A stretch of 27,599 nt of DNA from Escherichia coli. Lineage in GTDB: Bacteria; Pseudomonadota; Gammaproteobacteria; Enterobacterales; Enterobacteriaceae. The position numbers and the translations under genes were made by a program. Shown one piece after another: positions 8,683 to 13,273 of the stretch (position 1 is the first letter of the stretch; the number at the start of each line of letters is the position of its first letter). The stretch lies in assembly GCF_003334405.1 (NCBI RefSeq), contig NZ_QOWM01000029.1. One strand, 5' to 3'. The notes below the pieces were generated by a model. That model saw only the letters and a list, made by a program, of their open reading frames with translations. It made no database searches and was not told where the DNA came from.

Positions 8683-9075
8683 GTGGACGATGAACGGAAA
8701 AGGAAAAAATTCACACTTTATCTGCATCCGGAAAAAGCTGCAGACTTTCAAACTTTGGAAGCGATAGAGTCCGTTCCGCGTTCTGAGCGTGGTGAGCTGT
8801 TCCGGAATGCATTTATTTCTGGAATGGCGTTACACCAACTTGATCCTCGCCTGCCTGTATTGCTGACTGCCATTTTGAGCGAGGAGTTTTCAGCAGATCA
8901 GGTTGTAACCTTACTCAGTCAGACGACAGGATGGAAGCCTTCTCAGGCCGATATCAGAGCTGTGTTGACTGAACTCGGTGCTTTGCAATCTGCTGAAAAA
9001 ATGCCTCCTTCTGCTACTGATTCGGTGCAGGAGGCAATGAATGATGTGCGCCTTAAAATGCAAAAATTATTCTGA
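8683..9075 (+). CDS. parR: ParR (StbB) centromere-binding adaptor
   Basis: Small ORF directly downstream of parM. Probable GTG start at 8683 preceded by GAGGAG and overlapping the parM stop; product begins (M)DDERKRKKFTLYLHPEKA. Confidence 0.7.
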   Translation: MDDERKRKKFTLYLHPEKAADFQTLEAIESVPRSERGELFRNAFISGMALHQLDPRLPVLLTAILSEEFSADQVVTLLSQTTGWKPSQADIRAVLTELGALQSAEKMPPSATDSVQEAMNDVRLKMQKLF

Positions 9076-9079
9076 TATA

Positions 9080-9450
9080 TCAGAATGAAGCAATGGGGAT
9101 CTCAGTCCATTGTGTTGTATACGAAGGCGAGAGCATTTCCCGTTTCATTTGCCATTCAGGGGCGGTTCCTCGCCCCGCAAACCACACTTTCCCTTTTCCA
9201 GACTGGTTCAGTTCATCGAGTGTTTTCATTAACTTTTCGCTGTTTTTACGGGGCTGGATCTCATCAAATAATCCCGGCTGCGCTATACCCGATGGTGTGA
9301 AATCAGCCAGCATGACTCCTGCCTTCATATAGCGGTACCCTTCACGCCAGACATGGTTTAACGCTCTGCATGCTGCGGCAATAATGTCCCGGCTACCCAG
9401 GCCGTGCCGGCACGTTAACCGGGCTGCATCCGATGCAAGTGTGTCGCTGT
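9080..9450 (-). pseudogene. Y-family DNA polymerase (UmuC/ImpB/MucB-like) 3' fragment
   Basis: Minus-strand translation gives …ALNHVWREGYRYMKAGVMLADFTPSGIAQPGLFDE…WQMKREMLSPSYTT, matching the UmuC-family C-terminus (GYRYKKAGVML…MKREMLSPRYTT). No N-terminal catalytic region is present. Confidence 0.65.
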
Positions 9451-9592
9451 CGCCGGCCTCCTCACCCGGTCACGTTTCGTCGTTCCTCCTCCACGCGCTG
9501 CGGCTTCGGGGCCGCACCTGCATTCGTATGCGGTCGCCCGGTTACAGGTGCGGCACGGCCTGATGGAGGCCGCATGTGAGAGGAGAATTCCC

Positions 9593-10099
9593 ATGCCAAA
9601 CTGGTGCTCAAATCGTATGCATTTTTCTGGTGAACCAGCACAGATCGCTGAGATTAAACGACTGGCCAGCGGTGCAGTCACACCGCTTTATCGCCGCGCC
9701 ACAGATGAAGGTATTCAGCTGTTTCTGGCCGGTAGTGCCGGACTTCTGCAGACCACTGAAGATGTGCGGTTTGAACCATGCCCCGGACTGACGGCTGCCG
9801 GGCGTGGTGTTGTATCGCCGGAGAATATCGCGTTCACCCGCTGGCTGACACACCTGCAGAACGGTGTGCTACTGGATGAACAAAACTGCCTGATGCTGCA
9901 TGAACTCTGGCTGCAGAGTGGTACTGGCCAGCGTCGCTGGGAAGGATTACCGGATGAGGTCAGGGAAACCATCACCGTGCATTTCACCGCCAAAAGAGGT
10001 GACTGGTGTGGCTTCTGGAGTACCGGAGGGAACAAAAGGCAGGTCCCCGCAAAACGTCAAAACCGCGGCTCCCGAAACTCAACAGATGATGGGGGCTGA
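9593..10099 (+). CDS. Hypothetical protein, probably C-terminally truncated or fused
   Basis: ATG at 9593 preceded by GAGAGGAG. Product MPNWCSNRMHFSGEPAQIAEIKRL…; the last ~25 residues look like out-of-frame read-through, suggesting a junction near 10010-10030. Confidence 0.35.
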   Translation: MPNWCSNRMHFSGEPAQIAEIKRLASGAVTPLYRRATDEGIQLFLAGSAGLLQTTEDVRFEPCPGLTAAGRGVVSPENIAFTRWLTHLQNGVLLDEQNCLMLHELWLQSGTGQRRWEGLPDEVRETITVHFTAKRGDWCGFWSTGGNKRQVPAKRQNRGSRNSTDDGG

Positions 10100-10202
10100 A
10101 AACCAGAGAGAGGAGAAAGCAGGATGAGTACCCGTAATGAGGGAAAACAGGGACCATCACTGCCGTACATTCCGTCAGGAAGTTTTGCGAAAGCCATGCT
10201 GA

Positions 10203-10862
10203 TTGAAGGGGCGGATGTCGGTGATGGCCAGCCCCAACGGTAACCTGGATGAAGTGCATGAAGGTCTGCTGCTGCAGGCGGTCAGGGCCTCCTGGCTGGC
10301 TAAAAAGAACAGGGCGCGCATCGATGATGTGGTGGATTTCCTGAAAAACGCCCGTGATAACGACCAGTATGTCGAGTCACCGACCATCCGCAGCCGTCTG
10401 GATGAAATGATTGTCCTGCTGGATCAATATACCGCCGGCGGCACTTACGGCCGGTATTTTAACTCTGATGAGCCGTCCCTGCGGGATGATGCGAAAATGG
10501 TGGTGCTGGAGCTGGGCGGACTGGAAGACCGTCCGTCACTGCTGGTTGCGGTGATGTTCAGCCTCATTATTTACATCGAGAACAGGATGTACCGCACGCC
10601 GCGTAACCTCAAAAAACTGAACGTCATTGATGAGGGATGGCGTCTGCTGGACTTCAAAAATCACAAGGTCGGTGAGTTTATTGAGAAAGGTTACCGTACC
10701 GCCCGCCGTCATACCGGTGCCTATATCACCATCACACAGAACATCGTCGACTTTGACTCTGACAAGGCCTCCAGTGCTGCCCGCGCGGCATGGGGTAACT
10801 CCTCCTACAAAATTATCCTCAAACAGAGTGCGAAGGAGTTCGCGAAATACAACCAGCTGTAA
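10203..10862 (+). pseudogene. traC: Conjugative transfer ATPase TraC (VirB4 family) internal/C-terminal fragment
   Basis: Translation contains KLNVIDEGWRLLDF and flanking sequence resembling the VirB4/TraC ATPase region. Bounded by stops, with no N-terminal domains and no continuation. Confidence 0.5.
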
Positions 10863-11100
10863 CGGCGCAGAGTCACAGCCTGACCCTGCGGGATGCGCAG
10901 GGTGAAACGCAGGTGGTGCGTATTTCTTCTCTGGACAGCAGCTGGTTGCTGTTCCGGCCGGAGAAAATGCCGGTGGCAGACGGCGAGCGTCTGAGGGTGA
11001 CAGGGAAAATTCCCGGACTCCGCGTCTCCGGCGGTGACCGCCTGCAGGTGACATCCGTCAGTGAAGATGCGATGACGGTTGTTGTGCCGGGACGTGCTGA
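10863..11100 (+). pseudogene. traI: Relaxase/helicase TraI internal fragment (plus orientation)
   Basis: Plus-strand translation HSLTLRDAQGETQVVRISSLDSSWLLFRPEKMPVADGERLRVTGKIPGLRVSGGDRLQVTSVSEDAMTVVVPGRAE matches an internal F-type TraI segment, then loses similarity. Confidence 0.6.
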
Positions 11101-12128
11101 ATCCGGACACCATCCTGCATATTATCAGCCAGCAAGCTTTCTCCGTTACGGCTGCCCTGCAGGGCCACGAACTGCGCATCCCCGCTGCCCTTCACCCGTC
11201 CTTCACCACTGAATCCCCGCAGCCCGTTTCCGTCATCCGTGGTCAGTGGGTTCAGCCAGATACCGGCGGACTTGCCGTTACGGTCAAACGCCGGCAGTGC
11301 CACATACGGCTGCGGATATTTACGTCCCGGTGCAATAAACCGTGCCGGGCTGTCTCCCCCGGCCAGCCCTGCCTGACGGAGAACGGCACGGCCGGCCGCC
11401 ACGTCCCGCAGTTCCCGTGCCGTACTGAACAGCCGCTCTGCATTCATGACCTCCCGGTCAGCTTTTGGCTCCAGCACATCGTGGGCAGTCCCTTTCTGTA
11501 CGGCATTGTTAATGGCATCCGTCCAGCCCTGACGGTTATCGGTGTACACCTGCACATGCTGCTTCATACGCGACAGGGCCACGTAGGCTGACTCAAAGCC
11601 GGCCATCAGTTTCCGGTTACCTTCCGTGCCTTCAAGCGCAATGGCAAAGGTTTCACTTGCCCCCTGCGCACCGTGAGCGGTGATGGCATAGGCCAGGTCA
11701 ATATGTTGCTCTGCCTGCTCCTGGCCGGGGCGAATCTCCCGGGTCTGCTGTCCGTCCGACAGCGTGACACTGTCACCGGAAACTGCTGTCACCGTCCAGA
11801 CGCTGTTGGCAACATAACCGCGCTCCCGGTCACTCTTCGTGAAGCGCATCCGGTCACCGGTCCCCACCCTGATGGTGTCCGGGGTGTACAGTGTGACACC
11901 TTCAGCCACCGCCTCCCGGGGAGAAATCAGCCGCGTGTTACCTTCCGCATCCTGCAGGGTTATCAGCCCGTCATCCTTACTGATACCGGCAATCCGATGA
12001 TACACATTATCCACCAGGACAAGTGCGTCCCGATGTGTCTCCCAGGTGGAGAGACGACGCAGCTCCCCGTCACGTATATTCGCTGTGTTCAGGACAGGCA
12101 CCATGACCTGCTCTTTCCCCAGCTCTCG
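11100..12128 (-). pseudogene. traI: Relaxase/helicase TraI C-terminal-region fragment (inverted relative to the other traI piece and to finO)
   Basis: 357-aa minus-strand ORF ([29 protein letters not shown]…GSRNGESLLADNMQDGVRI) matches the F TraI C-terminal region and then diverges into non-homologous sequence before the stop. Confidence 0.8.
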
Positions 12129-12341
12129 CATAAAAAACTGCGCAGGGCGCTGAAGGCCATCACCCGTTCAGAAAGCTATCTGTGTGCCATGAAAGCCGGT
12201 GCCTGCCGGTATGACACGGAAGGGTATGTGACGGAGCATATTTCTCAGGAGGAGGAAGCGTATGCGGCAGAGCGTCTGGATAAAATCCGCCGCCAGAACC
12301 GGATAAAGGCAGAACTTCAGGCCGTGCTTGATGAGAAATAA
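12120..12341 (+). pseudogene. finO: finO 3' fragment (fertility inhibition RNA chaperone, C-terminal ~70 codons)
   Basis: Plus-strand translation [72 protein letters not shown] matches the FinO C-terminus. Upstream sequence in the same frame is the antisense of the traI fragment, so the 5' two-thirds of finO is missing. Confidence 0.8.
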
Positions 12342-12612: not shown

Positions 12613-12811
12613 TGCATGAGATTTTCTTTTTTTAATATCCGGTCGGGCAGTATAACCGGACAGTTCTGAGTAGCACAGGTTTTTTTTTCGTGTTAAGTCG
12701 TGATTTTATATTTTGCGATTAATTTCACAAAATAAGGTGTTATTCATTGTGTGCTGCAATGTTCAGGATGCCTGAAATACAGGAGCCATTTTATCTGATA
12801 TGGAGAATAAC

Positions 12812-13273
12812 ATGAGGAAATATATTCCACTGGTATTATTTATCTTTTCATGGCCGGTATTGTCTGCAGATATTCATGGACGGGTTGTTCGTGTACTGGA
12901 CGGTGATACCATCGAGGTCATGGACTCACGGAAGGCGGTGCGGATCAGGCTGGTAAATATTGATGCACCGGAAAAGAAACAGGATTATGGCCGGTGGTCA
13001 ACAGACATGATGAAATCACTGGTCGCAGGAAAAACGGTTACCGTCACATATTTTCAGCGAGATCGTTATGGTCGTATTCTCGGGCAGGTTTATGCGCCAG
13101 ACGGAATGAATATTAATCAGTTTATGGTCCGGGCCGGGGCTGCCTGGGTATATGAGCAGTACAACACAGATCCCGTGCTGCCTGTCCTTCAGAACGAAGC
13201 CAGACAACAAAAACGTGGGCTCTGGTCAGATGCTGATCCGGTTCCCCCCTGGATATGGAGGTACCGTAAATAA
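12812..13273 (+). CDS. Secreted thermonuclease-family (staphylococcal nuclease-like) endonuclease
   Basis: Signal peptide (MRKYIPLVLFIFSWPVLSA) followed by SNase-fold motifs (VVRVLDGDTIEV, RIRLVNIDAPE, DRYGRILGQVY). Confidence 0.75.
   Translation: MRKYIPLVLFIFSWPVLSADIHGRVVRVLDGDTIEVMDSRKAVRIRLVNIDAPEKKQDYGRWSTDMMKSLVAGKTVTVTYFQRDRYGRILGQVYAPDGMNINQFMVRAGAAWVYEQYNTDPVLPVLQNEARQQKRGLWSDADPVPPWIWRYRK

Follow-up and report, generated by a model that had tools for sequence, protein, structure and literature searches.

The open reading frame (ORF) at 9593..10099 of a 27,599-nucleotide (nt) stretch of the Escherichia coli contig NZ_QOWM01000029.1 is very probably a broken yubB gene fused to a piece of Frpo1/ssiD, and the leader that precedes it a hairpin related to the class 2 single-stranded-DNA (ssDNA) promoters, both being relics at this locus. 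Hereafter the window means this whole stretch, to which all coordinates refer unless a locus label (L002 and the like) is given. The original prediction, made from the sequence letters alone, had pointed to a truncated gene, to structure in its GC-rich leader and to a tail arising by read-through, and all three were borne out. As a whole the finding is ordinary, with a modest general point on a promoter family: in the annotation of the window, where it matters little, the ORF becomes a pseudogene of yubB, and its locus an F-like leading and transfer region in decay.

Residues 30-145 of the product match the Pfam family DUF1281/YubB (PF06924, E = 6.9e-30), over model positions 1-116 of 177 only, and a full-length relative matches Api92 of Yersinia pseudotuberculosis, whose crystal structure has been solved (PDB 2IJR), with E = 5e-50 and from residue 3. 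The protein, which had been described as impossible to place, has therefore both a family and a relative of solved structure. The ATG at 9593 is the true start, since the homology to Api92 begins at residue 3 and the motif MPNWCxNR is invariant in 22 DUF1281/YubB homologues with identities down to 45%, M1, P2, N3, W4, C5, N7 and R8 being unchanged in all of them; the good ribosome binding site reported previously is indeed present, with GAGAGGAG spaced 7 nt from this ATG. In PGAP/RefSeq, DUF1281 proteins are often started at MHFSG or MYFSG (L002 1143 and many other records), dropping the invariant MPNWCSNR, while the pESBL record has the long start. The intact relative of the product carries, after DUF1281, the ferredoxin-like domain DUF1281_C (PF18406, residues 209-282), for which Pfam gave no match in the 168-amino-acid (aa) product of the window. 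Moreover, the NCBIfam scan of this product returned no family, the PHROGs search returned families of unknown function only, and no functional study of DUF1281, Api92 or yubB was found in the literature, in agreement with the function having been called unknown. By its sequence, the ORF is the 5′ portion of yubB, a widespread plasmid gene without characterised function; it is a fragment of a well-known gene in the weak sense only that yubB is widespread and named, but not in the sense of a characterised one.

The stretch 9388-10025 corresponds to a yubB locus with 99.5% DNA identity to L002 914-1551 (local blastn and base-by-base comparison). The likeness to YubB/DUF1281 includes the N-terminal MPNWCxNR, codons 1-143 with 99.5% DNA identity to intact F-like copies, and the adjoining umuC remnant. 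The first joint, at 10022/10023, is a deletion with a 2-nt (TA) microhomology, beyond which 10018-10095 equals nt 79-1 of F ssiD (D90178) with 96% identity. The C-terminal residues are, as had been supposed, frame read-through: the identity to intact genes ends at 10022, and codons 144-168 and the stop come from single-strand promoter DNA. In terms of mechanism, an illegitimate deletion would have fused yubB codons 1-143 to the Frpo1/ssiD piece, giving 25 meaningless codons and a stop. Whereas a normal YubB has a length of 300-310 aa, the window ORF keeps 143 of ~308 codons, lacks the C-terminal ferredoxin-like domain and ends in a foreign, non-coding tail of 25 residues. Since one third of DUF1281 and the whole C-terminal domain are missing, the 168-aa product is best treated as that of a pseudogene. 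The yubB/Frpo1 joint was found in none of the PLSDB plasmids or complete E. coli genomes, among which no record covers 80% of 9330-10210, and the exact 168-aa product is absent from a collection of 15 billion proteins.

In F-like and IncI1 plasmids, yubB is the leading-region gene farthest from oriT. It has received several names (YfdA in F, Hp8 in pESBL, also YccB and YfaB, and "YubB ferredoxin-like domain-containing protein"), and it constitutes family 27, "Uncharacterized; DUF1281", of the leading-region-enriched families coded by the transferred strand (T-strand) in Samuel et al. (2024, supplementary file 3). A megablast search against plasmids places yubB DNA in thousands of replicons of F-like, IncI1 and related types, the matches always stopping near window 10025-10029. 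In the intact F-like plasmid NZ_CP074034.1, a yubB of ~300 aa follows sopABC and heads a run of genes pointing to oriT, with methylase, DUF1380, antirestriction, ssb and psiB genes after it in the same direction. Diverged yubB loci (45-61% protein identity) were obtained from Salmonella, Klebsiella, Kosakonia, Pantoea and metagenomes by protein search and contig look-ups; a scan of genome contigs with the protein gave near-identical relatives only, unusable for covariation. The order in most of the fetched relatives is par or umuDC, ~400 bp, yubB, small ORFs, ~350 bp, an M.EcoGIX-type N6/N4 methylase, YubE, DUF1380 and KlcA, and the succession of genes from par or umuDC through yubB, the small ORFs and the methylase to KlcA is also that of F, of an F-like plasmid and of pESBL. 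The position of the window ORF fits the oriT-distal end of a leading region, with the umuC remnant at its left, T-strand coding, and a layout as in L003, L012 and pESBL; of the gene order, the part downstream of yubB is deleted in the window. In classic F (NC_002483, L004 6856-7790, ~52.9-53.8 kb) yubB is frameshifted after ...NVLPEK, which accounts for the absence of any F gene after sopB, up to the next entry, in the PLSDB table. Furthermore, a protein search showed many database proteins to consist of the N-terminal part of DUF1281 fused to PsiB, PsiA, FinO, methylase or TrbC pieces (examples are P0015, P0019, P0023, P0030, P0036, P0058, P0090 and P0114), so that yubB is a recurrent deletion end point in F-like plasmids beyond this window.

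The leader had been noted as GC-rich with several inverted repeats, and so it is: its G+C content, in windows of 160 nt, reaches 0.66 at 9360-9599, compared with 0.42-0.49 between 8960 and 9359 and 0.53-0.59 for starts 9520-10560, so that no other part of the neighbourhood is as GC-rich. Besides several shorter pairs, it contains the two 27-nt arms of a basal stem (Table 1), which are 81% complementary, and a perfect 10-nt inverted pair (9511-9520 with 9545-9554). The result is an imperfect hairpin of ~171 nt and 66% G+C, here called type A, in which TCACCCGGTCAC and GCTGCGGCTT flank a reduced apex of 23 nt. As ssDNA, 9393-9571 folds better than 200 of 200 shuffles on either strand (z = -3.85 for the transferred and -4.29 for the sense strand). 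The proposal to fold the leader as RNA did not bring this out, the stretch 9420-9600, without most of the left arm, being no better than shuffles (z = -0.48). The structure is real, yet this is no mRNA leader of the usual type but a homologue of the ssDNA promoter hairpins of plasmid leading regions. Rfam gave no match at E <= 1 in window 9000-10400, and in L020 only a chance-level CRISPR-DR; a sigma-70 scan of the sense strand found no credible promoter inside the leader, either in the window or in pESBL. In intact plasmids the leader is a conserved cis element preceding yubB, and in this window a relic. A sigma-70-like site, TTAACG-16-AATAAT, stands at 9358-9385 (+) within the umuC remnant, its end being ~10 nt from the hairpin. 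In duplex DNA this site could drive the pseudogene, but the count of such sites in the scan is at chance level (2 found, 0.8 expected).

A profile hidden Markov model built from type-A copies only (nhmmer) matches, on the gene strand, the elements upstream of ardA and klcA in pESBL (E = 2e-17 and 4e-17) and of ArdB/KlcA in F (ssp2, E = 3e-15). These matches run end to end, over model positions 3-181, and the profile also recovers the equivalent sites in most of the fetched loci in which ardA or an antirestriction gene is included. The pESBL elements before klcA and ardA are class 2 promoters, validated by mapping their transcription starts with 5′ rapid amplification of cDNA ends (Wen et al., 2025, PMC12672017), and in F the synthesis of the complementary strand is stalled where the stem of ssp2 ends (Fraikin et al., 2026, bioRxiv 10.64898/2026.01.09.698686). 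Judged by this homology, the leader belongs to the class 2 (ssp2) family of ssDNA promoters as a short variant: it shares with them homology over the full length, nested helices with compensatory changes, the invariant TTG-N18-TA-N3-T on the transferred strand and a place directly 5′ of a T-strand-coded leading gene in the same orientation. It differs in its length (~171 nt against ~230 nt, class 2 having a large apical domain), in its -10 (TAACGT instead of TAAGAT) and in preceding yubB rather than an anti-restriction gene.

The same profile matches two elements of an insect gut metagenome (OFEI01000013.1) that Samuel et al. (2024) rated as low-certainty candidates, "Frpo* 1" (E = 2e-32, model 4-183) and "Frpo* 3" (E = 1.5e-44, model 4-186), while the class 2-like "Frpo' 4" of that study is matched in two pieces. 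"Frpo* 1" and "Frpo* 3" are of the same element type as type A, but they keep an apical hairpin with a CATTCAG loop which is lost in the form of the window, F and pESBL; the type has been listed previously, as a low-certainty candidate only. With Frpo/ssiD (class 1, F; Masai and Arai, 1997) the leader would share the proposed principle, a transferred-strand hairpin rebuilding a sigma-70 promoter; it has no sequence similarity to it, and the ssiD piece of the window is a 79-nt stub of the 351-nt element, located at the ORF tail. A class 1, Frpo-like identity of the leader was also considered and discarded, 9388-9592 being without similarity to the Frpo copies in L002 or D90178, with only the tail 10018-10095 matching ssiD.

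The leader can be aligned across loci down to 45% protein identity, and it includes blocks whose conservation exceeds that of the coding sequence. Type-A and class 2 copies, 25 in all, were aligned jointly (A6) and yielded a consensus fold of 33 pairs in nested helices, in which 94.7% of the cells form standard pairs, against 82.8% in column shuffles (none of 500 reached the observed value) and 29-47% when the partners were slid by 1-3 columns. Compensatory (double) changes occur at 15 of the 33 pairs, compared with 2-5 in the slid controls. The transferred strand of all 25 aligned copies reads TTGnnn-spacer-TAnnnT, with a spacer of 15 nt in 24 copies and of 16 nt in one, and the invariant letters are the best-conserved positions of the sigma-70 -35 and -10 hexamers. 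In the duplex, the sense strand of the leader offers CTGCAT-18-TTACAG, a poor promoter, which fits an activity in the single-stranded state only. Among the 53 non-Watson-Crick cells, those compatible with G.U outnumber A.C by 10 to 2 on the sense strand, favouring that strand, and 34 are C.T or C.C on the sense strand (G.A/G.G on the transferred strand), favouring the transferred one.

On these bases, we infer that type A would have promoter activity in intact plasmids. The leader stretch would fold once the transferred strand enters the recipient, the arm 9398-9445 becoming the non-template strand with its -35 TTGCAT and -10 TAACGT. RNA polymerase would read the opposite arm (9536-9562) as template and exit via the base of the hairpin near 9555; a start at about this point, which follows from the geometry only, would give a 5′ untranslated region (5′UTR) of ~38 nt including the ribosome binding site. 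In this way yubB would be transcribed before the complementary strand is made, and conversion to double-stranded DNA would dissolve the promoter. At the present locus, deletions have removed oriT, traM to traB and all else of the leading region, and because of these losses the hairpin can no longer work in this way.

Type A is one of two unrelated upstream elements, type B being the 385-bp segment directly 5′ of M.EcoGIX in pESBL, which forms a very large transferred-strand hairpin (z = -6.10); type B (pESBL L006 4398-4782) has no blastn match to window 9390-9592. Type A stands directly before the methylase in L016 (5663-5834), L020 (5660-5829), L021 (4653-4821) and L024 (4650-4819), and type B before yubB in L017/L018 (3735-3953), L022 (2743-2953) and L009 (3666-3988); the two types trade places among plasmid lineages as if they were interchangeable cassettes. 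The segment 54397-54782 (385 bp directly 5′ of M.EcoGIX) is gene-free in the pESBL annotation used by Wen et al., and we infer that type B is their "class 3" M.EcoGIX promoter (ssp3). For the leader itself that identity was rejected on sequence comparison, given its lack of a blastn match to type B and its class 2 homology. Two type-B or class 2 copies lie within a few kb of each other in L014 (6010-6242 and 7108-7408) and L019 (3976-4209 and 5140-5375), direct repeats that could promote leading-region deletions. In RefSeq, the interval from yubB to the methylase holds a "hypothetical protein" of 103 aa, rich in arginine (L006 4395-4706 in pESBL; L002 2042-2353), which is absent from the curated pESBL annotation; as this stretch folds as one large transferred-strand hairpin (z = -6.10), the ORF is probably spurious, overlying the putative class 3 promoter. 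Such spurious ORFs, like start calls that are too short, are routine annotation errors exposed near these elements.

A broader proposal, to which we give somewhat less than an even chance, is that type A is an active and so far uncounted ssDNA promoter for zygotic YubB, the fifth in F and the seventh in pESBL, and that A, B (class 3) and class 2 are cassettes shuffled by recombination among the leading-region operons. The site of the leader upstream of yubB is not marked on the published operon maps of F and pESBL. Were the proposal correct, a dead or attenuated short form could explain why yubB is unlisted among the induced genes and frameshifted in F. More broadly, the conserved element upstream of yubB belongs to the family of the recently validated class 2 promoters, this family has an invariant TTG...TA...T on the transferred strand, and such elements swap with a class 3-type element before yubB and the anti-restriction methylase. 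All this bears on the question of whether the single-strand promoters of leading regions outnumber the four (F) or six (pESBL) of present maps.

Several points speak against a promoter role for the leader. Both of its strands fold equally well, the mismatch spectrum points to either strand, and the 15-nt spacer is short and atypical for sigma-70. Other lineages keep an apical hairpin with a conserved CATTCAG loop, which is missing from the copies of the window, F and pESBL; the type-A form of the window, F and IncI1 is ~60 nt shorter than class 2 and may be attenuated. Moreover, we found no demonstration of promoter activity for type A in the literature, and the text of Wen et al. (PMC12672017), which counts six operons as induced in pESBL and four as induced in F, does not name yubB, Hp8 or YfdA among them. 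The frameshift of yubB in F and its neutrality in pESBL, where the transposon-sequencing (TnSeq) values of Hp8 are like those of neighbours dispensable for maintenance or transfer (PMC4288162), suggest that the yubB module may be dispensable or decaying.

Among the alternatives, the one that retains slightly more weight than the others, though it is unlikely, is that the leader is an mRNA 5′UTR structure regulating the translation or stability of yubB, transcribed from an upstream double-stranded-DNA promoter. The equally good fold of the sense strand (z = -4.29), the excess of G.U-compatible over A.C cells (10 to 2) and the CCTCC-like stretches of the leader, which could pair with the ribosome binding site, would agree with it; other lineages, however, do not conserve these anti-Shine-Dalgarno stretches, while the opposite strand has its TTG and TA...T unchanged throughout, and 34 of the 53 non-Watson-Crick cells would be C.T or C.C on the sense strand, the least stable kind. 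A promoter at consensus level is available just upstream (TTAACG-16-AATAAT), yet it lies in umuC-remnant DNA that is absent from the sopC and impC contexts, and it belongs to a count at chance level. The RNA fold of 9420-9600, with most of the left arm excluded, stays at the level of shuffles (z = -0.48), Rfam has no match, and the starts of the homologous class 2 promoters fit a hairpin-promoter model according to the authors of PMC12672017.

About as improbable, or a shade more so, are two readings that keep the hairpin in single-stranded DNA. In one of them it would act mainly as an initiation signal for, or a barrier to, complementary-strand synthesis rather than as a yubB promoter, and indeed class 1 Frpo primes DNA synthesis in vitro, and in vivo according to 10.64898/2026.01.09.698686, the homologous F ssp2 stalls the complementary strand (same source), and the element sits at the far boundary of the leading region, the side from which complementary-strand synthesis would begin. 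Nevertheless, barrier and promoter activities coexist in ssp2 (10.64898/2026.01.09.698686), which makes of this an added role and not an alternative, and type A is always directly 5′ of a T-strand-coded yubB or methylase, at a fixed distance from the ATG, as fits a promoter. The other reading, of the same low standing, takes the leader as the published class 3 promoter (ssp3) of the M.EcoGIX operon with yubB as first gene: yubB is directly upstream of the methylase in pESBL and F, the text of Wen et al. speaks of a hairpin "5′ of M.EcoGIX" only, and among the parS sites with which each of four operons was being marked in F, one was "adjacent to yfdA" (10.64898/2026.01.09.698686). However, the gene-free 385-bp segment 54397-54782 directly 5′ of M.EcoGIX holds a larger hairpin (z = -6.10) unrelated in sequence to the leader, and class 3 is described in PMC12672017 as differing from all other hairpins, while the leader is homologous to the klcA/ardA hairpins. 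As for the ORF, that its 168-aa product is a functional short YubB seems hardly credible. It does keep the true start, a strong ribosome binding site and five predicted helices, the first of the protein, and databases contain many DUF1281 proteins that are partial or fused; the break, however, falls inside DUF1281 (position 116 of the 177 in the model), the ferredoxin-like domain is gone and with it many of the invariant residues, the tail comes from a non-coding promoter, the neighbouring genes are all fragments, and neither the exact sequence (15-billion-protein collection) nor the joint (PLSDB plasmids, complete E. coli genomes) was found elsewhere. We thus retain a broken yubB preceded by a relic of a class 2-related hairpin, the features of which are collected in Table 1.

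Table 1. Features of the yubB relic, its leader and its neighbours in the window
Feature	Position	Strand	Basis
umuC/impB C-terminal remnant, left neighbour	9080..9328	-	NCBIfam PRK03609 UmuC, residues 341-421 of 422, E = 8.5e-38
Left deletion joint, umuC remnant to yubB upstream module	9388..9394	.	comparison with pESBL
Type-A hairpin, short homologue of class 2 ssDNA promoters (ssp2)	9397..9567	- (transferred/template strand, proposed to fold)	nhmmer E = 2.5e-33
Basal stem, left arm	9398..9424	.	inverted repeat, pairs with 9536-9562; consensus helices 1-2
-10-like TAACGT	9412..9417	-	T1, A2 and T6 invariant in 25 of 25 copies; partly in internal loop
-35-like TTGCAT	9433..9438	-	TTG invariant in 25 of 25 copies; sits in helix
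Basal stem, right arm, proposed template arm	9536..9562	.	inverted repeat, consensus fold, single-strand fold
Ribosome binding site GAGAGGAG	9578-9585	+	read from sequence; ATG at 9593 begins 7 nt downstream
yubB codons 1-143 of ~308, 3′-truncated pseudogene	9593..10021	+	PF06924; protein comparison with intact gene
Frpo1 (ssiD, class 1) 3′ remnant with ygeA 5′UTR and first codons	10018..10138	+	F L004 17927-18047, 97.5%
Read-through tail, 25 codons and stop, from non-coding Frpo1/ssiD DNA	10022..10099	+	joint; ssiD match
Internal traB fragment	10129..10217	+	L002 23864-23952, 100%; joined via TACCCG.AAT microhomology
traC fragment, right neighbour	10203..10862	+	NCBIfam PRK13721 TraC, residues 556-771 of 874
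Inverted traI fragment	11058-12131	-	residues ~1120-1463

The surroundings of the ORF are those of an F-like backbone in decay, in which the end of the leading region farthest from oriT survives as a relic. On the left, 9102-9394 corresponds to pESBL impB (L006 1146-1438) with 95.6% identity, and in comparison with pESBL the left joint has lost ~190 bp of ancestral intergenic DNA, impA, impC and the 5′ part of impB; the same joint exists in NZ_CP054663.1 (L003). On the right, the first 86 nt of 10018-10138 also match the Frpo2 copy before ssb. This 121-bp Frpo1/ssiD stub carries the ribosome binding site and ATG (10125) of ygeA, fused to the traB piece and then to traC DNA, and the ygeA start/traB/traC fusion produces a chimeric ORF of ~39 codons within 10018-10244 (MSTRNEGKQGPSLPYIPSGSFAKAMLIEGADVGDGQPQR). 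From 10203 to 12131 the transfer region is down to scraps of traC and traI. The other genes of the window (2928-3989, 5685-6428, 6834-9075 and 12800-13273) comprise an IS110-family transposase, a tyrosine recombinase, a ParA-type ATPase (- strand), a parM/parR-like pair and a thermonuclease-like gene, the usual content of a maintenance backbone of IncF type.

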